Source: an uncultured Planctomycetia bacterium (GTDB lineage Bacteria; Planctomycetota; Phycisphaerae; FEN-1346; JAACEH01). Taken from it: a stretch of DNA of 64,000 bases. A program made the translations under genes and the position numbers. The stretch lies in assembly GCA_903929765.1 (NCBI GenBank), contig CAIYVX010000063.1, forward strand, positions 10,174 through 74,173. The letters run 5' to 3'. Of the stretch, positions 11,884-60,475 are shown one piece after another. The notes below the pieces were generated by a model, which worked only from the letters and a program-made list of their open reading frames with translations, made no database searches and was not told the DNA's origin. Within the stretch, counting starts at the first letter, position 1. Each line of letters begins with the position of its first letter.

Positions 11884-13134
11884 TTAAACCAAACCTTTCT
11901 TCCGCGCCAACTCTTCAAACAACTCTTCATGCCGTTTCACAAACCGTTCCGCCGAAAACTCCTGACGCACCCAGGCTTTTCCTTCTTCCGCCATGCGCCG
12001 CGTTTCGTCCTCGTATTTCAGCGCCTGAAAAATCCCCGCCGCGATGCCTTTGGGATACCCCGGCTCCACCAGCCGTCCGCAACGCCCGTCGGCCACCAAC
12101 TCGCGCATCCCCGCCACGTCGCTCACCACCACCGGCGTCCCCGCCAGCATCGCCTCCAGCACCGCGTTGCTCATCCCCTCGTGGAAACTCGGCAGAATAA
12201 ACAGGTCCGCACGCCGCAAAATCGCCGGCACGTCCGTCCGCGGCCCCACCAGTGTCACGTACCCCTCCACCCGCATCCGCTCCACTTCAAACGCCAGCCG
12301 CGACCGCTCCGGCCCGTCCCCCACAATCCACAAATGCACCGGGCAACGCGTGTGCCGCAACAGGCCCATCGCCCACATCAGGTAAATCAAGCCCTTCTGC
12401 CGCGTCAGCCGACATGCCGTCACCACCAGCTTGTGCCCCGCCGGCACCTCCGGCAGTTGCACAGTGGCACGGGCATCTTGCCCGTGAGTCGCAGGGGCAT
12501 CTTGCCCCTGTGCCTTTGTTGCTTTTTTTTCTTCTTCACCCCTCTCCCTTGAGGGGAGAGGGTAGGGAGAGGGTGTTGCTTCTTCTTTTTCTTCGCTGTT
12601 GTTCTGTTGTTCAATCTCCCCCAACTTTATCCCCGCATGAATGACCCGAATCTTCTCCGCCGGCCAACCGTGCCCCAGCCCATATTCCCGCACCCCCGCC
12701 GAGTTGGCCACAATCGCATCCGTCCGCCGCCCCAGCCGCCGGTCCAGCCAATGGTGCAATCCCGGCTTCGGCCCGCTGTCCTGTTCCCCCGCCACGATCA
12801 CCGGCACCCCCGCCCGCAGCGCCGCCGCCCGACCGAACGCGTTCGCCGTGAACATCCACGTGTACGCAATATCCGTCTGCCGCTCTTTCAGCAGCCGCTC
12901 CAGGCGCAGCACCACGCGCAGGTCGTACTTGAACGCCTTATTCAGTATCGTTACCGGAATCCCCGCCGCCCGAATTTCCGCCTCATGCGGCCCGCCTCGC
13001 GTCAGCGCATAGACGTCCACCTCGAACCGCGCCGGGTCGAGCCGCCGAGCCAGCAGGGCCAACTGCTTCTCCGCTCCCGCCCGGTCCAGTGTCGCGATAA
13101 TCAAGGCCACCCGCAACTTTCTCATGGGAGGCAC
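11884..13134 (-). CDS. GT4-family glycosyltransferase carrying an in-frame low-complexity insertion of about 55 aa encoded by palindromic repeats.
   Basis: The N-terminal Rossmann domain (KLRVALIIATLDRAGAEKQ) and the C-terminal EGMSNAVLEAMLAGTPVV are typical of GT4. The insertion GEIEQQNNSEEKEEATPSPYPLPSRERGEEEKKATKAQGQDAPATHGQDARATVQLPE is encoded by repeat DNA at 12468-12575. Confidence 0.8.
   Translation of the reverse strand: MPPMRKLRVALIIATLDRAGAEKQLALLARRLDPARFEVDVYALTRGGPHEAEIRAAGIPVTILNKAFKYDLRVVLRLERLLKERQTDIAYTWMFTANAFGRAAALRAGVPVIVAGEQDSGPKPGLHHWLDRRLGRRTDAIVANSAGVREYGLGHGWPAEKIRVIHAGIKLGEIEQQNNSEEKEEATPSPYPLPSRERGEEEKKATKAQGQDAPATHGQDARATVQLPEVPAGHKLVVTACRLTRQKGLIYLMWAMGLLRHTRCPVHLWIVGDGPERSRLAFEVERMRVEGYVTLVGPRTDVPAILRRADLFILPSFHEGMSNAVLEAMLAGTPVVVSDVAGMRELVADGRCGRLVEPGYPKGIAAGIFQALKYEDETRRMAEEGKAWVRQEFSAERFVKRHEELFEELARKKGLV
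12468..12575. repeat. Cluster of palindromic repeats inside the GT4 coding sequence: tandem hairpins CACGGGCATCTTGCCCGTG (12468-12486) and CAGGGGCATCTTGCCCCTG (12492-12510), plus CACCCCTCTCCCTTGAGGGGAGAGGGTAGGGAGAGGGTG (12537-12575).
   Basis: Perfect 8-bp stems are visible. The first hairpin recurs intergenically at 57412-57430. The CCCTCTCCC...GGGAGAGGG type recurs at 20971-21020, 38896-38949 and 45051-45094. Confidence 0.75.
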
Positions 13135-19022: not shown

Positions 19023-19325
19023 GTGCGAACAATCAGTCTGAAACCCTTGCGGGACTTCTGGGAGCGTCACCCTGACGCGGAGCGGCCCTTGCGGCTCTGG
19101 TACAAGACGGTCGTTTGCGCCCGCTGGGACAATTTACAGGACGTGCGACAGGATTATCCCCACGCGGACGGCATCAGGACGACCGACGGCGGCACGCTGA
19201 CCGTTTTCAACATCGGCGGCAACAAATATCGGCTGGTGGCGCGCATTCGTTATGACTATGGGTTAGTGAACGTGCGGGCCGTGTTGACGCACGCGGAATA
19301 TAATTCAGGTAGGTGGAAGGAATAG
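19023..19325 (+). CDS. higB: Type II toxin-antitoxin system HigB-family toxin (RelE/ParE fold). It has a GTG start immediately after the TAA stop codon of the transporter gene.
   Basis: FWERHPDAERPLRLWYKTV...VFNIGGNKYRLVARIRYDYGLVNVRAVLTHAEYN matches the HigB-toxin family pattern (FN[IV]GGN.[YL]R[LV]V...THAEYD). Confidence 0.85.
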   Translation: MRTISLKPLRDFWERHPDAERPLRLWYKTVVCARWDNLQDVRQDYPHADGIRTTDGGTLTVFNIGGNKYRLVARIRYDYGLVNVRAVLTHAEYNSGRWKE

Positions 19326-19328
19326 ATT

Positions 19329-19760
19329 ATGGCCGGGACAAAACATATCGTCGGGCGAGAAAAGTTGCCGGGACGGTTCGAGGAACTGGTGCGCGTGATG
19401 CCGCCGCAGAGCATCGTGGATGAGGTGCACTACGAGAACACGCTGGAGATGGTCGATCGTCTGATGGTCGTGGGTCGCCTGACCCGGGGACAGGAACTTT
19501 ACCTGGAGACGCTGGTCGAACTGGTCGAGGCCTTCGAGGCCCGGCAGCACGCCATTGAGACGGCGGACCTCACGGGGCTGGATTCTCTGCGCCACCTGCT
19601 GGAAGCCAATGAAATGGACGCTTCGGACCTGGGACGACTGCTGGGCATCCACGCCAGCATGGGGTCGAAGATTCTGAAGGGTCAACGGGCACTGACGGTC
19701 GGCCATCTGCGAAAACTTGCGAACCGCTTCAAGGTCAGCCCGCAGTTGTTCATGGATTGA
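19329..19760 (+). CDS. higA: HigA-family antitoxin (XRE-type helix-turn-helix).
   Basis: 143 aa. The C-terminal DASDLGRLLGIHASMGSKILKGQRALTVGHLRKLANRFKVSPQLF is an HTH_XRE domain. It starts 3 nt after the higB stop codon. Confidence 0.8.
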   Translation: MAGTKHIVGREKLPGRFEELVRVMPPQSIVDEVHYENTLEMVDRLMVVGRLTRGQELYLETLVELVEAFEARQHAIETADLTGLDSLRHLLEANEMDASDLGRLLGIHASMGSKILKGQRALTVGHLRKLANRFKVSPQLFMD

Positions 19761-19771
19761 AACCCATTTTA

Positions 19772-19799
19772 ATGTCGGGTCTGTTGACCCGACCTACAT
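19772..19799. repeat. REP-type palindrome in inverted orientation (ATGTCGGGTC-TGTT-GACCCGACCTACAT), 12 nt after the higA stop codon.
   Basis: Perfect 8-bp stem. Same family as 525-550. Confidence 0.8.
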
Positions 19800-19878
19800 T
19801 CTGGCGATTAGTAAAATATTATCAGGATTTCCAGAGAACCGATAAATGATCGGCTGCTGCGAGTCTGGAGGCAGACCC

Positions 19879-20460
19879 ATGGGTGAAGTCTGGAAAATAA
19901 ACCTTGCGTCATGGATCATCCAAGACGGGAACTACGGCGATTTTGCCAAGGGCGACGAGTGTGAGTTTGCCCTTGAATTCTGGCCAGAGAGGCTTGAACT
20001 CACCGAACGGGCACAACCTTGTTGCACCTGGGTTAAGGACTGCTATTACAGCGTGACTGCTCGCATTGTTATGTGCCAGGAAGACGTTTGGGTACTCAAC
20101 TTCGGCCTGCTGGCCTATCAGGAATCATCGCCGCTGAAAGGACTGGCCATCGGTGATTGTGTGGCAGGAAGGATCGGCATTGGCATTGATCCCTTTTTCT
20201 ACTCCGAGCGCCTGCACGCCTTGCCCGGTATGCCGCCGCTGAATTACTCGTGGAAGATAGAGCGAATTCTACTCCAAACCGCGCCTTTCGTTGAAACAAC
20301 AAGGCCCGGTACCGGCAAAGTATTGGTGCGTGATGAAAGCAACCGCGGCTATCGCGATATCGGTAAGACGGATGCTTGGCATGACGATGGAGGCATCGCC
20401 GAGTATCTTTTGGAGTGTCGCCACAATGAAATTACACCGGCTCAGAGGACTTTGGCGTAG
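19879..20460 (+). CDS. Hypothetical Cys-rich protein of low GC, with no family I recognise.
   Basis: A strong ribosome-binding site GGAGG sits 7 nt upstream of the ATG at 19879. GC is about 52%. The protein is MGEVWKINLASWIIQDGNYGDFAKGDECEFALEFWPE... Confidence 0.5.
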   Translation: MGEVWKINLASWIIQDGNYGDFAKGDECEFALEFWPERLELTERAQPCCTWVKDCYYSVTARIVMCQEDVWVLNFGLLAYQESSPLKGLAIGDCVAGRIGIGIDPFFYSERLHALPGMPPLNYSWKIERILLQTAPFVETTRPGTGKVLVRDESNRGYRDIGKTDAWHDDGGIAEYLLECRHNEITPAQRTLA

Positions 20461-22034
20461 ATGACTTTGTCGTCGGCGGGGGCGTAGAAGTCTTTGACGC
20501 GGGCGGCTTCGTGGTAGCCGACGCGGAGGTAGAAGGCGCGGGTGGAGTGGTAGCTGGGGCGGCCGTTGGTTTCGACGATGACCAGGCGGCCGGCGCGGGT
20601 GCGGATTTCATTTTCGGCGAAAGTCATCAGGGCCTTGCCGAGGCCGCGCGATTGGCGGCGCGGATCGACGGCGATCCAATAGATATCGAAGGTACCCTGG
20701 GCGCAGGGGGCGGGACCGTAACAGACCCAGCCGGCAGGACGGCCGTCGAGGTCGGCAGTAATAGATTGGTAATGGCCGTGATGGCCTTTGGCCAGGGCGT
20801 CGTCGAGGACTTCGCGGGCGATTTCTATTTCGTCGTCGCGGAAAAAGTCAGTGGCGATCATGAATTCGAGAATGGGGTCGCGGTCGGCGGGGAGGGAGCG
20901 GCGGATCGAAAAACTAGGGTCTGTCCCTAGTTTTTGGGAGACGTTCGTGGAGTCTGACGCACAGGGCCTCAACCCCTCACCCGGCCCTTGCGGGCCACCC
21001 TCTCCCGAGGGAGAGGGGTTAAAAGCAGCAAGGCGACGGGCGGCGTTTTCGACCAGGGTGCGGATGAACTCGTGGTAGGGGATGTTGGCGGCGGCGAGGG
21101 CGGCGGCCAGGCCGGCGTCGGAGGAAAGGTCGGGGTTGGAGTTGACCTCAATGATGGAAGGTGAGACGCGCTGGTCGAGGCGGAGATCGACGCGGACGTA
21201 GTCGCGGCAACCGAGGGCGTGCCAGGCGTCGAGGACGCACTGGCGGACGCGGTCGGCCTGGCGCGAGGTGAGCGGCGCGGGGATGATGCGATTTGTATGG
21301 TGATATTCAAATGATTCCGGTTGCCACTTGGCGGCATAGCCGACGATGCGCGGTCGGTCGTTGCCGAAGTCGGAGAAGTCGATTTCGGCCAGGGGCAGGA
21401 CCTGGGGCAGGCCGCGACGCTCGATGACGGAGACGTTGAGTTCGCGCTGGCCGACGAATTGTTCGACGAGGGCGGGCTGGTGGAACTGGTGGTGGATGGC
21501 GTGGATGGCTTCGGCGAGTTTCGGTCCCGGCTCGGAAACGACGGAATGGGCGTCGATGCCTTCGCTGGCGTCGGCGGCGACGGGTTTGACGATCCAGGGT
21601 CCGGGCGGGAGGTCGCGCGGGCGGACGGCCTGGCCGACGGGAATAAGCACGGCGGCGGGGCACGGGAGGCTGGCGGCGGCGAGGACGGCTTTGGAGCGCC
21701 ATTTGTCGAGGGTGAGGAAAAGGTTAGGCGTGTCGCCGCCGGTGGATTCTTTGCCGTAGGCGGCGCAGAGGGCGGGGACGGAGGCGGGCGAGCCGGGACC
21801 GAGGCGGAGCTCTTCGACCAGGTTGAAGACGAGCGGTTCGGGTGCGGCGGCGAGGATGGCGGGGAGGTCGGCGAGCGAGCGGAGGCCGAGGGCGCGGTAG
21901 GCGACGCCGAGTTGGCCGAGGGCGGCGACGACGGCTTCGACTTCGGCGAGGACTCCGGTGTCGCTGGCGGAGAATTTGTCTCCGGCTTCGGGAGTGTTAA
22001 AGAGAATGATAACGGCGGGAAGTTCGGCGTTCAT
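20442..22034 (-). CDS. Fusion protein with an N-terminal D-Ala-D-Ala-ligase-like ATP-grasp domain and a C-terminal GNAT N-acetyltransferase domain. The two domains are joined by a linker that is encoded by a palindromic repeat.
   Basis: The true start is MNAELPAVIILFN (ATG at 22034, overlapping the upstream stop codon in an ATGA arrangement). ATP-grasp blocks: WIVKPVAADASEGI and IIEVNSNPDLS. Linker: NPSPSGEGGPQGPGEGLRP. GNAT block: IRRSLPADRDPILEF...QSRGLGKALM...GYHE. The 5' 290 nt of the 626-aa ORF in the track are read-through across the upstream gene. Confidence 0.75.
   Translation of the reverse strand: MNAELPAVIILFNTPEAGDKFSASDTGVLAEVEAVVAALGQLGVAYRALGLRSLADLPAILAAAPEPLVFNLVEELRLGPGSPASVPALCAAYGKESTGGDTPNLFLTLDKWRSKAVLAAASLPCPAAVLIPVGQAVRPRDLPPGPWIVKPVAADASEGIDAHSVVSEPGPKLAEAIHAIHHQFHQPALVEQFVGQRELNVSVIERRGLPQVLPLAEIDFSDFGNDRPRIVGYAAKWQPESFEYHHTNRIIPAPLTSRQADRVRQCVLDAWHALGCRDYVRVDLRLDQRVSPSIIEVNSNPDLSSDAGLAAALAAANIPYHEFIRTLVENAARRLAAFNPSPSGEGGPQGPGEGLRPCASDSTNVSQKLGTDPSFSIRRSLPADRDPILEFMIATDFFRDDEIEIAREVLDDALAKGHHGHYQSITADLDGRPAGWVCYGPAPCAQGTFDIYWIAVDPRRQSRGLGKALMTFAENEIRTRAGRLVIVETNGRPSYHSTRAFYLRVGYHEAARVKDFYAPADDKVIYAKVL
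20971..21020. repeat. Palindromic repeat AACCCCTCACCCGGCCCTTGCGGGCCACCCTCTCCCGAGGGAGAGGGGTT that forms the in-frame interdomain linker of the ATP-grasp/GNAT gene.
   Basis: Outer inverted repeat AACCCCTC/GAGGGGTT, with inner hairpins GGCCCTTGCGGGCC and CCCTCTCCCGAGGGAGAGGG. Same family as 12537-12575, 38896-38949 and 45051-45094. Confidence 0.75.
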
Positions 22035-23023
22035 GGGACGATTCCGAGGCGGAGGCAGGCGCTGCGGATGATAGTGTCGATCAGTTTTTCGTAGGGGAGA
22101 CCTTCCTGGGTGGCGATCATGGGGAGGTCGCTGTGGGTGGGGTGGATGCCGGGCAAAGGGTTGAGTTCGATAAAGACGGGACGGCCGGCGGCGTCGCAGC
22201 GGACGTCGACGCGGCCCATGTCGCGGCACTCGAGGGTGCGGTAGGCGGCGAGGGCGAGGCTCTCGACCTCGTCGCGGAGCGGGCCGCGGGCCAGGGCGGA
22301 ATAGCGGACGAGCGTCTCGCACTTTTCCTTGTTCTCATAGGAATAGATGGCGTCACCGGCCTGGGGCAGGATTTCGACTTCCATGGTGCCCAGCACTCGG
22401 GCGGCGGGGCCCGTGCCGAGGACGGCGGAGGTAAACTCGCGGCCGGGGAGGTATTCTTCGATGAGGACGGGCTGGGCGAATTGTTTGAGGAGCGAGCGGC
22501 AGACTTCGCGGAGTTGGGCGGGCGAGTCGATGCGGGAGCGGGCGTCGATGCCTTTTCCGGTGCCCTCGGCCAGGGGTTTGGCGAAGAGGGGGAAGGGGAG
22601 CGCGACGGCGGCGAGGTCGGTTTCGGCGGCGACGACGTGGAAGCGGGCGGTGGGCAGGCCGGCGGCGGCGACAAGGCGTTTGGCGACGGCTTTGTCGAGG
22701 GTGACGGCGCAGGCGAGGCCGTCGCTGCCGACGTAGGGGACGCCGTAAAGTTCAAGGAGGCAGGGCACCTGGGCTTCGCGGTTTCGGCCGCGCAGGCCTT
22801 CGGCGATGTTGAAGACGAGGTCCCAGCGTTCGGCGGCGACGAGGCGGCGGCAGAGTTCCCAGGCGTGGCCGATGCGGACGGTGCGGTGGCCGAGCGAGCG
22901 GATGGCGGCGTCGAGGGCGTCGATGGTCGACGCGGAATCGAACTCGGCGACTTCCTCGGCGGTGTGGCCGCGATCGAGGTAGTCCTGGCGCAGGTCGTAG
23001 GTTAAGCCGATGGTGAGGCTCAT
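22031..23023 (-). CDS. D-alanine--D-alanine ligase family ATP-grasp protein.
   Basis: YGVPYVGSDGLACAVTLDKAVAKRL, PLFAKPLAEGTGKGI and FIELNPLPGI match the Ddl fold motifs. It is translationally coupled to the downstream ATP-grasp/GNAT gene. Confidence 0.8.
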   Translation of the reverse strand: MSLTIGLTYDLRQDYLDRGHTAEEVAEFDSASTIDALDAAIRSLGHRTVRIGHAWELCRRLVAAERWDLVFNIAEGLRGRNREAQVPCLLELYGVPYVGSDGLACAVTLDKAVAKRLVAAAGLPTARFHVVAAETDLAAVALPFPLFAKPLAEGTGKGIDARSRIDSPAQLREVCRSLLKQFAQPVLIEEYLPGREFTSAVLGTGPAARVLGTMEVEILPQAGDAIYSYENKEKCETLVRYSALARGPLRDEVESLALAAYRTLECRDMGRVDVRCDAAGRPVFIELNPLPGIHPTHSDLPMIATQEGLPYEKLIDTIIRSACLRLGIVP

Positions 23024-23032
23024 GGGGTTTAC

Positions 23033-24403
23033 CTAGAACAGTTGCTCGGCGGCGGAAACGCCGTGGCGTTGTCGGCGGCGGCCGCCGCGCGAAGTTTCGG
23101 CGGGAGCGATGGCCGAGGCGCGGCCGGTGGCCAGTTCCCAGACGCCGGGCGAGGCGGCGCCGGGCGCGGGCGGACCGGCGGGAGCGGCAGCGTGCGGCTC
23201 CGGGTAGGAGACCAGCATGCCCTCGAAGTTGCGCAGGACGGTGTGGGTCGGGCTGGTGGAGACGATGTAGTTGGGCAGGACGGGCACCTTGCCGCCGCCG
23301 TGCGGGGCGTCGATGACAAAGGTGGGAATGGCCAGGCCGGAGAGACGGCCGCGCAGGTATTCCATGATTTCGATACCGCGTGAGACGGGCGTGCGGAAAT
23401 GTTCGACGCCGCGCACCAGATCGCATTGGTACATGTAATATGGTTTGACGCGAATTTTAACCAGGGCGCGGCAGAGGCGTTCCATGAGTTGGGGGTCGTC
23501 ATTGATGCCCTTGAGGAGTACGGACTGGTTGCCCAGGGGAATGCCGGCGTCGGCCAGGCGCGTGCAGGCTTCGGTCGATTCGGTGGTGATTTCGTTGGGG
23601 TGGTTGAAATGGGTGTTGATGAAGAGCGGGTGGTATTTGCGGAGCATTTCAACCAGTTCAGCCGTGATGCGCTGGGGCATGGTGACGGGCGTGCGCGTGC
23701 CGATGCGGATAATATCCACGGTCGGGACAGAGCGGACGGCAGCGAGGACGCGCTCAAGAGATTCGGTGGTCATGGTCAGCGGGTCGCCGCCGGAGACGAT
23801 GACGTCGTGGATTTCCGGGTGCTGGCGCAGATAGGCGACGACCTGCTGGAGGCGAATCGGAGAGATTGAAGATTCGCGGGCGCCGGCGACGCGCTTGCGG
23901 GTGCAGTGGCGGCAGTACATGGCGCAGGTCGAAGTGGCGATGAGGAGGGCGCGGTCGGGATAGCGGTGGACCAGGCCGGGCACGGGCATGTCGTGATCCT
24001 CTTCGAGCGGATCGTCGCAGAGGAAGGGTGGATCGTTGAGTTCCTGGGCCTGGGGGACGCACATCTGGAAGATGGGGTCGGAGGCGTCGGGATTCTGGAT
24101 GAGCGAGGCGTAGTAGGGCGTGATGGCCAGGGGAAATTTTTCGGCGGCGCGCACGAGGGACGGCTGGCCGCGCAGTACCGGGAAACATCTGAGGAGTTGG
24201 TCGACGGAGCGGAGGCGATTTCGCATCTGCCACCGCCAGTTGTCCCAACGGTTATTGTTTTCGCGATTGAGAAGTCCGGCGGATGGGGCCGGGTCAAACG
24301 ATTCCGTGGCCGCACATGAGAGAGGAGGTTCGTCGGCGGAAACGGAGGGAGGTTCATCAAGTGAGGCTGGTGAAGCCTCCGACGAAGAAACTTTTGTCTT
24401 CAT
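23033..24403 (-). CDS. KamA-family radical-SAM aminomutase (lysine 2,3-aminomutase-like), with a low-complexity N-terminal extension of about 50 aa.
   Basis: The radical-SAM cluster TCAMYCRHCTRKR (CxxxCxxC in a KamA-type context), then VIVSGGDPL, and a length of 456 aa. Confidence 0.85.
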   Translation of the reverse strand: MKTKVSSSEASPASLDEPPSVSADEPPLSCAATESFDPAPSAGLLNRENNNRWDNWRWQMRNRLRSVDQLLRCFPVLRGQPSLVRAAEKFPLAITPYYASLIQNPDASDPIFQMCVPQAQELNDPPFLCDDPLEEDHDMPVPGLVHRYPDRALLIATSTCAMYCRHCTRKRVAGARESSISPIRLQQVVAYLRQHPEIHDVIVSGGDPLTMTTESLERVLAAVRSVPTVDIIRIGTRTPVTMPQRITAELVEMLRKYHPLFINTHFNHPNEITTESTEACTRLADAGIPLGNQSVLLKGINDDPQLMERLCRALVKIRVKPYYMYQCDLVRGVEHFRTPVSRGIEIMEYLRGRLSGLAIPTFVIDAPHGGGKVPVLPNYIVSTSPTHTVLRNFEGMLVSYPEPHAAAPAGPPAPGAASPGVWELATGRASAIAPAETSRGGRRRQRHGVSAAEQLF

Positions 24404-27777: not shown

Positions 27778-27805
27778 ATGTCGGGTCTGTTGACCCGACC
27801 TACAT
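27778..27805. repeat. REP-type palindrome (ATGTCGGGTC-TGTT-GACCCGACCTACAT) between the folK stop codon and the panC start codon.
   Basis: Perfect 8-bp stem. Same family as 525-550. Confidence 0.8.
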
Positions 27806-27814
27806 TCCGAGCAG

Positions 27815-34367: not shown

Positions 34368-34563
34368 GAGTGCGTCCTCCGATTGTCAGGACAGTTACCG
34401 CCCCGCATTGGTTTACGGGGAACCGGATAGAATAGCAGCCCGCGGCCTTTAATTCAAGCAAAATTGTGAGAAACCGTTGACATTCAACCTCAAAAACAAC
34501 AAAAAAAGCATCCTCCGGCCGTGCTGGTGGGCTTCAAAAGAAAAAGCAAAGCCAAGCAGCCCC

Positions 34564-35160
34564 CTAATTTTTGGGCTTGACGATGCCTTTGGACGCAAGA
34601 AATTTGACGACGGAATGGCCGAGGCCGCGCGAAACCATTTCTTCCCACTCTCGGAGGCTCTTGGACTGGGAGGCCAGGACGGCCTCGGAAAGAACCTTGC
34701 CGGAGGCGCGGTCGGAGAATTTGGCGTGGATGGCGAGGACGGGATTGTCGCCGAAACCGATGATGCGCAGGCCCCTGCTGTCGCCCTCGTAAAAATCGAC
34801 CACCTCGCCGGTGACGAGGATCGTTTTGCCCTGGCCCTGGAGGACGCCTTCCTTGTCGATTTCCATCTGGGCATAGGGCTGGAGGTCCGCCAGGAGCGTG
34901 AGCGGGACGGTGCCGTGCATGAAGCCGGAGGTGATCGGGCCGATCCTGATGGACTGGTAACTGGTCCAGTCGGCGGGGCCGGCCGAGGTCTCCGTGAAGC
35001 GGACGTCGTACGGCAGCGCTTCGTGGAACAGTCCTCCGGCGGCCAACTCGGCCGCGGTTTCGCAGCCGGAAACGGAGGCCAGCGCAGCCAGGGTGAGAAT
35101 CATCAACAGGCCTCGGACCAATTTTCCCTCCTCCATTGGATTGTTGGCGTCACGAGGCAC
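34564..35160 (-). CDS. Hypothetical lipoprotein.
   Basis: Signal peptide with the lipobox LAALASVSGC. There is no recognisable catalytic motif. Confidence 0.5.
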   Translation of the reverse strand: MPRDANNPMEEGKLVRGLLMILTLAALASVSGCETAAELAAGGLFHEALPYDVRFTETSAGPADWTSYQSIRIGPITSGFMHGTVPLTLLADLQPYAQMEIDKEGVLQGQGKTILVTGEVVDFYEGDSRGLRIIGFGDNPVLAIHAKFSDRASGKVLSEAVLASQSKSLREWEEMVSRGLGHSVVKFLASKGIVKPKN

Positions 35161-35211
35161 ACCCTTTGGCCCCGGTTTCGCCGGGTCTTCAAAGTGCGGC
35201 AGCCGGAAAAA

Positions 35212-38895: not shown

Positions 38896-39030
38896 AAACC
38901 CCTCACCCTGCCCGTTGGGCCCCCTCTCCCAAGGGAGAGGGGTGAAACGACAAAAGAAACGGCATCCCCCAGCAGTGCTGGGGGCTTCAAAAGAAAAGCA
39001 ATAACAGAAACAACGGCAACGCCAAGCGGA
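38896..39030. repeat. Composite intergenic repeat block made of a CCCTCTCCC...GGGAGAGGG palindrome module (38896-38949) joined to a CCCCCAGCAGTGCTGGGGG hairpin module with AACAACGGCAACGCCAAGCGG.
   Basis: The same modules recur at 47527-47600, 55566-55645, 34495-34560, 53266-53320 and 4447-4471. Confidence 0.7.
38958..38990 (-). terminator. Candidate intrinsic terminator for the lipoprotein gene 39098-39664. On the minus strand it reads GCCCCCAGCACTGCTGGGGG followed by ATGCCGTTTCTTTTGTCGTTT.
   Basis: An 8-bp GC-rich stem followed by a T-rich tract on the minus strand, about 110 nt after the stop codon. Confidence 0.45.
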
Positions 39031-45050: not shown

Positions 45051-45094
45051 GTCACCCGCACCCTACCCTCCCCCGTCAAGGGGGAGGGGTGAAG
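45051..45094. repeat. Palindromic repeat GTCACCCGCACCCTACCCTCCCCCGTCAAGGGGGAGGGGTGAAG.
   Basis: Variant of the CCCTCTCCC...GGGAGAGGG family with outer CACCC/GGGTG arms. Confidence 0.6.
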
Positions 45095-45105: not shown

Positions 45106-46461
45106 CTACTTTTTCTCGGCGGCGTGGTAGGGCTTGACCACGTCTTCCCAGAGTGACTGGGTGAGTTGATAGCTCCAGACGCAATGATTGGCGTCGGTGA
45201 CTTCTTTACTGGCGTGACCCTTCGAGTAGTCGTAGTAGCCGTGTTCGAGTTTGTAGAAGAAGTCGGGGATGCCGATGTTCAGGCGGGCGAGGCATTCGTC
45301 GGCCTGCGGCCCGGGCTTCCAGTAGCCGCCGACGACCAGAACGAGATGATTGAGGAGGTTGGTGATAAATCCGGAGTAGGCGTAGTCCATGTCGCTGCGC
45401 GGCCCGCCGCCGTCCATGGAGTCGAGTTCCTTCAACATGCCGATTTTGCCCTTATTGGGCAGCTTGTCTGCCCCGGAGGCGAGGCAGCCGGCGCCGGTGT
45501 CTTTGAAACCTTTGCCGCCGTTGAGGCCGGCACTGACCGTGGCGCCATAGGTGAAGGTGGTCAGCTTGTAATAGAGACCCATCAGGTCGTCCAGATGCTG
45601 TTTCTCGTAGCGGTAGTTGCGGATACCGGCGGCGATGGTCGGGCCGTCGGGAGCGGGCGAGGTGGGATGATCGGCTTTCCAGTTGAACGCCTTATAGGTG
45701 TTGGTCAGGCCGGCGGCTTTGAGTTGGGCGACAAAGGCGTCGTGGTCGTAGGCGTTGAGGATGCGGTTGGCCTGGGCCGGTCCGCCGAAGAAGACGGAAG
45801 TGGCGATCAGGTTGCCGAACATGCCTTCGCGGAAATTGGGGTTCCAACCGCGGTTGAAGTTGAGGTCGCCGTCGATGGCCACGGGCTTCGGGACGCCGCC
45901 GGAAGCGTCGCTGGTGGTGAAGGCGGAGCCGACGAGCTCGGCTTTCATAACCAGGGCGATCTTGGCCTTTTCCTCGGGCGTAAACTGATTCCAGACGCGC
46001 GGGGTCATGCGGGCGACGGCCAGGGCCGCGGTGACCTGGAGTTCGTGCTGGGCCGGATAGCCGCCGTTGGCGGTCGGACTGCTTTTTGCGGAGATGACGC
46101 CGTTGCGGATCTGTTCGAGAAGCCGGGCGTCGGCGGCGGTGTTGCCCTGCCAGGCCGCCAAGGCCAGAACCATGGGGCTGCCGCCGTTGAAGCCGCCGTC
46201 GGTGTGGGCGCCACCATTGAAGTCGCGGTTAAAGTGCATAATACGGACGGCGCTGGCGGACTCGACGGTCTTCTGCGGCACCGGAGGGAGCTTGATCTTG
46301 GCCGCAGGAAGCGGAGGCAAACCCGAGTCAACATTGTTCGACGCCACCGCGACGACGCTGGTCGCGGAGTCGGCGGCCCAGGCGACGGAGCAGAGGCTGG
46401 CCGAGAGGGTAAGCAGAATGAACAGGCCGGCTAGATACTTGGAAGTCATGTGATTCCTCAC
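45106..46461 (-). CDS. Hypothetical secreted protein.
   Basis: N-terminal signal peptide (LFILLTLSASLCSVAWA), 451 aa, with no recognisable motif. Confidence 0.55.
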   Translation of the reverse strand: MRNHMTSKYLAGLFILLTLSASLCSVAWAADSATSVVAVASNNVDSGLPPLPAAKIKLPPVPQKTVESASAVRIMHFNRDFNGGAHTDGGFNGGSPMVLALAAWQGNTAADARLLEQIRNGVISAKSSPTANGGYPAQHELQVTAALAVARMTPRVWNQFTPEEKAKIALVMKAELVGSAFTTSDASGGVPKPVAIDGDLNFNRGWNPNFREGMFGNLIATSVFFGGPAQANRILNAYDHDAFVAQLKAAGLTNTYKAFNWKADHPTSPAPDGPTIAAGIRNYRYEKQHLDDLMGLYYKLTTFTYGATVSAGLNGGKGFKDTGAGCLASGADKLPNKGKIGMLKELDSMDGGGPRSDMDYAYSGFITNLLNHLVLVVGGYWKPGPQADECLARLNIGIPDFFYKLEHGYYDYSKGHASKEVTDANHCVWSYQLTQSLWEDVVKPYHAAEKK

Positions 46462-47373: not shown

Positions 47374-47554
47374 AATCATCTCCTCGGTATCTGAACTAAT
47401 TCCGCCACCCAGCCGCTTGGCGCTGCCCCCGACAGCAGCAACGCGACGGCACGAAGGGACTATCATAGCAAGGTGCGGGCGGATGGCAAGGGAGAAAGGT
47501 CGTGGAAAGGCCGTGGACCGTGAGCAGTAACAACAGCAACGGCAGAAACAACAG

Positions 47555-47590
47555 CATCCCCCAGCAGTGCCGGGGGCTTCAAAGGCAACA
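47555..47590 (-). terminator. Candidate terminator for gene 47602-49614. On the minus strand it reads GCCCCCGGCACTGCTGGGGG followed by ATGCTGTTGTTTCTGCCGTTGCTGTTGTT.
   Basis: Repeat-family hairpin located directly after the stop codon. The downstream tract is only moderately T-rich. Confidence 0.4.
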
Positions 47591-55525: not shown

Positions 55526-55565
55526 GGTGAGTCCTTTCAGAACAGCAGTCCTCAGTCTTCAGGCA

Positions 55566-55645
55566 CAGCAACTGCAGAAACACCGGCGTCCCCCAGCAGT
55601 GCTGGTGGCTTCAAAAAAAGAAGCAACAACGGCAACAGCCCCGTC
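55566..55645. repeat. Copy of the repeat family CAGAAACA-CCCCCAGCAGTGCTGGTGGCTTCAAAAAAAGAAGCAACAACGGCAACAGCC, 40 nt upstream of the nifU start codon.
   Basis: Same modules as 38945-39030 and 47527-47600. Confidence 0.65.
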
Positions 55646-57344: not shown

Positions 57345-57402
57345 GTAGGTCGGGTCAACAGACCCGACATTATCAGTAGCACGTCGGGTCTGTTGACCCG
57401 AC
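57345..57402. repeat. Tandem inverted pair of REP-type palindromes (GTAGGTCGGGTC-AACA-GACCCGACAT and ACGTCGGGTC-TGTT-GACCCGAC), 5 nt after the nusA stop codon. A CACGGGCAAGATGCCCGTG hairpin follows at 57412-57430.
   Basis: Two perfect 8-bp-stem hairpins in opposite orientation, 10 nt apart. The third hairpin is identical to the one inside the GT4 gene. Confidence 0.8.
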
Positions 57403-57460
57403 TAACGTTCTACAAAGCTCACGGGCAAGATGCCCGTGCTACTGTAAAGGGAGAGCCTCA

Positions 57461-60444: not shown

Positions 60445-60472
60445 ATGTCGGGTCTGTTGACCCGGCCTGCAT
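60445..60472. repeat. REP-type palindrome (ATGTCGGGTC-TGTT-GACCCGGCCTGCAT), 9 nt after the infB stop codon.
   Basis: Same family as 525-550. The stem has one mismatch. Confidence 0.7.
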
Positions 60473-60475
60473 AAT

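Follow-up and report, generated by a model that had tools for sequence, protein, structure and literature searches.

A BoxC/PIT/TM-class palindromic repeat in frame within the interdomain linker of an ATP-grasp–GNAT fusion protein from an uncultured Planctomycetia bacterium

Palindromic repeats of the BoxC/PIT/TM ('intrastrand triplex motif') class occur in Escherichia coli and in more than 260 other bacteria (Holder et al., Nucleic Acids Res 2015, PMC4666352, where the earlier descriptions by Bachellier et al. and Hoyne et al. are cited). No function has been demonstrated for the TM class, which has been linked to local genome variability (PMC4666352). Palindromes that lie within genes are known from another group, the Rickettsia palindromic elements (RPEs) and other intragenic repeats of the miniature inverted-repeat transposable element (MITE) or enterobacterial repetitive intergenic consensus (ERIC) type, which have been reviewed (PMC10969869). 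Here, we describe a stretch of 64,000 nucleotides from an uncultured Planctomycetia bacterium (contig CAIYVX010000063.1, positions 10,174 to 74,173; 'the window'), in which a repeat with the arms of the TM class lies in frame between the two domains of an ATP-grasp–GNAT fusion protein. The phenomenon, in-frame palindromic repeats as seen with RPEs (PMC10969869), is known and so is the repeat class (BoxC/TM); the location is unreported for that class.

The gene that carries the repeat lies on the minus strand, and its parts are as follows.

20442..22322, minus strand: host open reading frame (ORF), with a likely start Met at 22034 that gives a protein of 530 aa
21021..22034, minus strand: ATP-grasp (D-Ala-D-Ala-ligase-like) domain, aa 1-338, from Pfam and an AlphaFold model
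20965..21030, minus strand: repeat unit of BoxC/PIT/TM type, 66 bp (22 codons), peptide AAFNPSPSGEGGPQGPGEGLRP, aa 336-357
20971-21020, minus strand: 50-bp core of the unit; on the mRNA strand, arm CCCTCTCCC (21017-21009), TC, arm GGGAGAGGG (21006-20998), T GGCCC GCAA GGGCC (20997-20983) and arm GGGTGAGGG (20982-20974)
20445..20912, minus strand: GNAT acetyltransferase domain, aa 375-530; stop codon at 20442-20444

The 50-bp sequence AACCCCTCACCCGGCCCTTGCGGGCCACCCTCTCCCGAGGGAGAGGGGTT lies at 20971-21020, on the non-coding strand of the host ORF (by shuffling, 0 matches would be expected), and its translation in the host frame, NPSPSGEGGPQGPGEGLRP, corresponds to aa 339-357. The original prediction had described a double hairpin read in frame between the ATP-grasp and GNAT domains, and in this it was correct: the element folds as two hairpins plus an outer closing stem, with a free energy of -31.3 kcal/mol on the plus strand (z-score -2.6) and -37.7 kcal/mol on the mRNA strand (z-score -2.9 versus shuffles), and Pfam and AlphaFold place it in a coil linker. 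It contains the inverted repeats CCCTCTCCC/GGGAGAGGG (9 nt, 100%) and AACCCCTCACCC/GGGAGAGGGGTT (12 nt, 92%), and its G-rich arm GGGAGAGGGG is able to pair with either of two C-rich arms. The first loop is only 2 nt long; the second, of 15 nt, holds a small GGCCC-loop-GGGCC hairpin of its own. Comparison with related contigs extends the repeat from the predicted 50 bp to a unit of about 66 bp that includes a GCCTCAA head and an A-rich tail, the ends of which, AACCCCTC...GAGGGGTT, are mutually inverted.

Pfam recognizes Dala_Dala_lig_C (PF07478) at aa 146-329 (E 3.9e-19) and GNAT (PF00583/PF13508/PF13673) at aa 402-511. The AlphaFold model, with 120 homologues in its alignment, has a mean predicted local distance difference test score (pLDDT) of 92 and is confident for both domains. 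The last ATP-grasp helix spans residues 320-338, residues 339-374 are modelled as coil, with pLDDT below 50 only at 351-372, and strand 1 of the GNAT domain occupies 375-379, with pLDDT above 90 onward. Both domains are thus carried by one predicted polypeptide, in which all 46 of the columns that are invariant in the alignment of homologues are kept (46/46); given this and the confident model, the 530-aa protein looks functional. Of the three frames of the 66-bp unit on the coding strand, one is open; it is the frame used, and it leaves the GNAT domain in register. A tryptic peptide predicted from the repeat-bearing linker is LAAFNPSPSGEGGPQGPGEGLR. The same 530-aa product has been called, without a single difference, in two ENA assemblies; of the two contigs concerned, L135 matches the window at 100% identity over 4016 bp. 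This makes an assembly artefact unlikely and, together with the 46 invariant residues, argues for a maintained gene.

By arm sequence, with Watson–Crick folding alone computed, the element is a member of the BoxC/PIT/TM class. Its three 9-nt arms, CCCTCTCCC, GGGAGAGGG and GGGTGAGGG, are identical to those of E. coli TM_ECO no. 17 (Table 1 of PMC4666352); a sequence for comparison in that table reads CCCTCTCCC TGA GGGAGAGGG TTA GGGTGAGGGG (Holder et al. 2015, PMC4666352). A pyrimidine block is followed by its purine complement and then by another G-rich block, an arrangement compatible with C-G*G triads. Like the described elements, the repeat is multi-copy (four copies in the window and at least 120 metagenome contigs among the matches listed), GC-rich, without an associated transposase and situated at loci of high local variability. 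It differs in its second loop, which at 15 nt and with an internal hairpin exceeds the 2-5 nt of the E. coli loops as well as the limits used in earlier searches (1-6 nt, ITxF; 0-10 nt, Hoyne et al.), although a short loop is present in the window copies at 45051 and 12540. It further differs in the A-rich tails of its unit, in its planctomycete host and in having copies in frame in genes: the target copy and the copy at 12534 both lie within coding sequences. A blastn search of E. coli genomes with the 71-nt element returned no match, probably through the low-complexity filter and the different loops.

Three other systems bear comparison. The RPEs and intragenic MITE/ERIC-type repeats resemble the present family in that palindromes occur both between genes and in frame in unrelated housekeeping genes, where a conserved peptide is added at positions that the fold can accommodate, such as loops and linkers. 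Here, one repeat is likewise in frame in unrelated genes (ATP-grasp–GNAT and coaE, which share the peptide, and also a GT4 glycosyltransferase and others), and the sites are of the same kind: a coil in the model of the ATP-grasp–GNAT protein and, in the GT4 protein, an insertion between two Rossmann domains. The likeness is one of behaviour and not of sequence; the size, GC content and host give no reason to expect homology. At about 66 bp, the unit is shorter than an RPE (about 100-150 bp); the host is a free-living bacterium of high GC content; evidence of transposition in the form of terminal inverted repeats or target-site duplications is lacking; and the genic fraction is much lower (about 7% of the sampled copies, and two of the four in the window). 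Repetitive extragenic palindromes (REPs) and the bacterial interspersed mosaic elements (BIMEs) that they form, which are mobilized by REP-associated tyrosine transposases (RAYTs), are similar in being small extragenic palindromes in mosaics, since a CCACGG hairpin or a CCCCCAGCAGTGCTGGGGG hairpin often comes after the TM unit. The 5' GTAG tetranucleotide of REPs is absent from the TM unit, although a palindrome in the linker of one homologue (P0050, locus L130) does start with GGTAGGG. Finally, the Rfam family whalefall-1 (RF01762) shares a CUCUCC/GGAGAG hairpin, a second variable hairpin and a single-stranded GGGUGAGG tail, in that order. Membership was rejected, with a score of 17.6 bits (E 0.023, 181-nt search) against a gathering score of 37, and we consider this a resemblance only; nothing within the window reached an Rfam gathering threshold, nor did whalefall-1 in 20 related loci.

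In the simplest reading of the original prediction, two adjacent genes, one for the ATP-grasp and one for the GNAT domain, became one through loss of the stop codon in an intergenic repeat insertion, in which case the repeat family would act as a domain-fusion vector and linker donor. Among 5.8 billion proteins searched there were 613 homologues, the best 120 of which provide the figures given here; the protein identical to the query is missing from the list although it is on record, so that absence from the list is no evidence of absence. At least 118 of the 120 are full-length, with 48-57% identity and both Pfam domains; 116 are 495-590 aa in length and two are shorter (P0114, 470 aa; P0002, 346 aa). 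The linker is the sole stretch that cannot be aligned, and the repeat peptide is found in no other listed homologue. With R334 and R378, both nearly invariant, as anchors, the linker measures 43 aa in the window protein, compared with a family median of 25 aa (5-95%: 21-43), and is as long in only 8 of the 120; the excess corresponds to roughly one repeat unit. The repeat unit supplies 22 of these 43 residues. Descriptively, therefore, half of the linker is repeat-derived, and to this extent the notion of a linker donor stands; the repeat created neither the linker nor the fusion.

A scan of species-representative genomes, in which the best match was 52% identical to the window protein, revealed fused loci in metagenome-assembled genomes (MAGs) labelled Planctomycetota, Verrucomicrobiota, Bacteroidetes and Desulfuromonadales. 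In the nearest fused orthologue (P0001 at locus L001; 80% amino-acid identity) the element is absent. The block concerned is the following.

20907..21038, minus strand: linker block of 132 bp with no DNA homology to the corresponding 111 bp of L001 (3041-3151); the flanks are 87-88% identical (BLASTN)

The linker gap of a verrucomicrobial locus (L006) is 69 nt shorter than that of the window, and in two further orthologues (L005 and L007) the domains are fused through short linkers free of the repeat. Where the repeat is absent, as in L001, L005 and L007, the domains are thus not separate genes, contrary to what the proposed fusion history predicts. The ATP-grasp–GNAT fusion is ancestral and older than the repeat, and because fused, repeat-free homologues span four phyla, the repeat did not cause it. 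One locus is split: in L003 (7003-7167; MAG of an uncultured Planctomycetaceae) a TGA codon comes right after the ATP-grasp domain and the GNAT domain follows in the same frame past a palindromic spacer of 55 codons (z-score -3.25), giving separate ORFs in what is an apparent gene fission at the linker. Since this sole split locus carries a palindromic insert with a TGA codon, repeats at the linker tend to split the gene rather than to fuse it.

The element is one of four copies in the window. Two relatives named in the original prediction (38896-38949 and 45051-45094) are real copies, the first of which we place at 38897-38949; a fourth had been overlooked.

12534-12587: fourth copy, in frame inside a GT4 glycosyltransferase gene
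12475..12603, minus strand: insertion in the GT4 gene, 129 bp (43 aa), with a TM-type core at 12529-12576, TPSPYPLPSRERGEEE; coding sequence 11884..13125
38897..38949, plus strand: intergenic copy upstream of a lipoprotein/ankyrin gene, the likely start of which is MKIAILVIAVLAVGGC
45051..45094, plus strand: shorter copy that lacks the middle hairpin and lies just past the 3' end of the minus-strand ORF 45106..46461, probably intergenic

The description of an intergenic repeat family accordingly fits the copies outside genes and fails for the 12534 copy. The GT4 insertion encodes NNSEEKEEATPSPYPLPSRERGEEEKKATKAQGQDAPATHGQD, between two Rossmann domains (Pfam N-domain, aa 20-171; C-domain, aa 232-388), and includes a 24-bp tandem duplication (GQDAPATH / GQDARAT). 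It is absent from all seven of the closest homologues (89-58% identity), which are 370-372 aa in length, compared with 413 aa here. A 100% identical protein with the insertion is present in the database.

A pattern scan of metagenomes yielded at least 120 contigs with the hairpin-in-loop architecture, at GC contents of 0.40-0.74; the figures that follow are for the matches listed. The closest copy is at 505-570 of L079 (JGI Ga0316226_1102580), with 97% identity over 66 bp. It lies in frame in coaE (dephospho-CoA kinase), in the same frame as in the window, encodes AIFNPSPSGEGGPQGPGEGLRP and breaks the Pfam CoaE match into two parts. The peptide common to this protein and the window ATP-grasp–GNAT protein, (A/I)FNPSPSGEGGPQGPGEGLRP, is 20 aa long. 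Upstream in the same contig (45-156) is a second, intergenic copy together with a CCACGG hairpin. Intragenic copies were judged by Pfam checks of the spanning ORFs, a filter based on GC content at third codon positions having proved too strict (it missed the window's own case); in-frame copies with Pfam support flanking or spanning them number 8-9 of 127 (about 7%). Hosts or sites of these are as follows.

UvrC
hydantoinase B
SMC
between two CCG domains
between YrdC and Sua5_C
a TMEM260-like protein
MmeI methylase

The spacer that separates the first two arms nearly always folds into a hairpin; it takes 112 distinct sequences in 125 copies (L010-L129), with 71 distinct stem arms, and 95% of the spacers of at least 12 nt fold with at least 4 bp. 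The structure of the middle hairpin is therefore kept while its sequence varies. In the same copies GCAAG is the commonest first loop. In L041 (7223-8272), a further TM-type element marks the point where a truncated N6 DNA-methylase ORF meets, in the same frame, a DUF559 endonuclease-like domain.

The TM unit is not the only palindrome in this linker.

20909..20935, minus strand: second, unrelated perfect hairpin, AAAAACTAGGG-5 nt-CCCTAGTTTTT, read (Q)KLGTDPSF(S), directly before GNAT strand 1

This hairpin (z-score -3.4) occurs once in the window and has one open frame per strand, the frame used. CTAG sites number 20 in the window against about 217 expected, and two of the 20 are inside it. 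The same CTAGGG hairpin is present twice in L002, at 1068-1096 and 1123-1150, as inverted copies in the same frame, both read NKLGSYPS. There, the two hairpins separate a truncated ATP-grasp ORF from a truncated ABC-transporter ORF, which may reflect a real rearrangement or a chimeric Logan contig. A role for the CTAGGG hairpin as an internal intrinsic terminator was considered and was unsupported by a simple scan; the T-run belongs to the stem. The linker of L001 contains a different hairpin, CCACGGTCGGCTTGCCCGACCGTGC, from another repeat family.

(GTG)CCACGG-stem-loop-CCGTGC family: in frame at L001 3090-3114; intergenic beside TM copies at L127 79-103, L079 131-156 and L110 1191-1218

The position of the CCACGG family beside TM copies suggests BIME-like mosaics. 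Long linkers elsewhere in the family are also strong palindromes, unrelated to one another (L130, P0050, z-score -6.1; L131, P0060, -4.4; L132, P0066, -4.9), and short linkers are not (L005, -0.1; L007, -0.7). One long-linker example, GGTAGGGTGCGTACC...GGTACGCACCCTACC, is REP-like with a GTAG head. The pattern is one of palindromic repeats of many families that accumulate in a permissive tether; the frame stays open through most of them, and one divides the gene.

We consider it likely that the element is a TM-class passenger, in frame inside the linker of an enzyme that was already fused, and that the fusion was not its doing. A TM-class copy of about 66 bp would have come to lie in the poorly conserved linker of this enzyme, and it may have persisted there for three reasons: the length of the unit is divisible by three; it is read in the only stop-free frame of the strand; and the predicted peptide, disordered and rich in Gly, Pro, Ser and Glu, would merely lengthen a flexible tether between independently folded domains. 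Parsimony, and the presence of a 97% identical copy in an unrelated gene, point to gain by insertion here rather than loss elsewhere, and we infer that the element is selectively near-neutral.

Several points weigh against this explanation. The polarity of gain versus loss in the comparison with L001 would follow from parsimony and the identity to the L079 copy. No target-site duplication is evident at the window flanks, at the L079 flanks or in the filled versus empty GT4 sites, and no transposase or other mobilizing enzyme was identified for the element, a RAYT gene not having been searched for. The TM elements of E. coli are reported to be always intergenic and unassociated with mobile elements (PMC4666352), and for this reason the mobility of the class is unproven. 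Translation of the repeat within the fused product is predicted from the reading frame. A protein search with a 44-aa tandem of the repeat peptide gave one irrelevant candidate, and a HMMER search of 1.84 billion representatives with a 33-aa window segment gave none at E <=0.001; since queries so short and of such low complexity stretch what these tools can do, such searches are uninformative rather than negative. The two ENA assemblies that contain the identical product are perhaps not independent of the window's own data. Lastly, in L002, the nearest locus by protein identity (86% amino-acid identity), the ATP-grasp ORF stops after the CTAGGG hairpin with no GNAT domain downstream.

This last locus, together with L003, in which the ATP-grasp ORF also stops in the linker, is what might be cited in favour of a fusion of adjacent genes through loss of the stop in an intergenic repeat, as is the composition of the linker itself, built as it is of intergenic-type palindromes (the TM unit and the CTAGGG hairpin). 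We nevertheless find this history scarcely tenable: fusion without the repeat is shared by at least 118 full-length homologues of about 50% identity and extends across four phyla; L001 lacks the element, short repeat-free linkers join fused domains, and the split locus L003 is the one that carries a stop-bearing palindromic insert. A history of splitting followed by refusion within a small clade would be unparsimonious, and the proposal that the family is a fusion vector has to be abandoned. We also regard as very improbable, if slightly less so, that the open frame is an artefact that hides a stop or frameshift, or that a decaying gene happens to be open by chance. Palindromes rich in GC are prone to assembly errors, a run of 44 random codons at 63% GC would be free of stops with a probability of about 0.29 and L002, a short Logan contig, is maybe a repeat-mediated chimera. 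Set against this are the product shared by the two ENA assemblies, the identity to L135 that includes the linker, the presence of both palindromes in the only open frame of the strand with the GNAT domain in register, the intact invariant residues and the confident model of both domains; the GT4 case is in addition matched by its identical database protein.

A subtler alternative is that palindromes at the domain boundary are selected at the level of the nucleic acid, through ribosome pausing that lets the ATP-grasp domain fold first, as an internal processing, stability or termination signal by which the two halves would be expressed separately, or as a DNA structure that promotes local rearrangement. 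At least five palindrome families in the same linker across lineages would be accounted for in this way, as would a TM middle hairpin conserved in structure and varied in sequence, the link of E. coli TM loci to local genomic variability (PMC4666352) and the difference between the window and L001 in the segment downstream of the fusion gene. However, most homologues, with a median linker of 25 aa, have no such structure and, as they do without it, the palindrome is dispensable for the enzyme. Each palindrome belongs to a genome-wide repeat family that is mostly intergenic, no terminator-like site is found at the hairpins, PIT elements showed neither promoter nor terminator activity in E. coli (PMC4666352) and a permissive linker accounts for the recurrence without any function. 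We therefore judge selection of this kind to be unlikely, and retain the neutral in-frame passenger as the preferred explanation.

The fusion gene is the last member of a conserved cluster on the minus strand (20442-24403) that comprises a lysine-2,3-aminomutase (KamA-like radical SAM protein), an ATP-grasp ligase and the ATP-grasp–GNAT fusion, with overlapping stop and start codons. The cluster is also present in L001, L130, L131 and L135, in several phyla, and its product is possibly a compound derived from beta-lysine; nothing relevant was found in the literature on a kamA/ATP-grasp/ATP-grasp–GNAT cluster. Just downstream of the fusion gene (19023-20460) are a HigB/HigA toxin–antitoxin pair and a 204-aa ORF without a Pfam match. 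In the equivalent place of L001 (3654-6842) are a PMT_2-like gene and a B12-binding radical SAM gene, so that a variable segment adjoins the repeat-bearing linker. Mosaic intergenic repeats abound in the source genome. A 30-nt hairpin repeat, ATGTCGGGTCTGTTGACCCGACCTACATTC, is present four times (19772-19801, 27778-27807, 57381-57410 and 60445-60474), with identical sequence at two of these places, and small palindromic families, one with an A-rich tail and CCCCCAGCAGTGCTGGGGG and another of the form CACACTTTGAAGCCCCGG...CCGGGGCCAAAGTGTG, are found at 38941-38991, 47533-47583, 55565-55615, 34487-34537, 577-628 and 35159-35204.

More broadly, we tentatively suggest, at somewhat less than even odds, that a TM class shared across phyla may repeatedly enter coding sequences in frame and be kept mainly in interdomain linkers and surface loops, where it would give rise to disordered peptides rich in Gly, Pro and Glu. 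Stop-bearing copies would split fused genes, as in L003, permissive linkers would serve as recurrent landing pads and the variable hairpin of conserved structure would hint at a mechanism of copying or recognition. A class reported from E. coli as purely intergenic is now found in frame within genes in several phyla, and a common variant, with a hairpin in the second loop, would escape searches that limit loop length. For annotation, PSPxGEG...GEG/VRG peptides in conserved proteins are real insertions and not necessarily frameshift artefacts, and the long, odd linkers of multidomain proteins are worth checking for palindromic DNA. In place of a repeat that fuses genes, the locus presents flexible interdomain linkers as safe harbours for translated palindromes that are selfish or prone to form structure.

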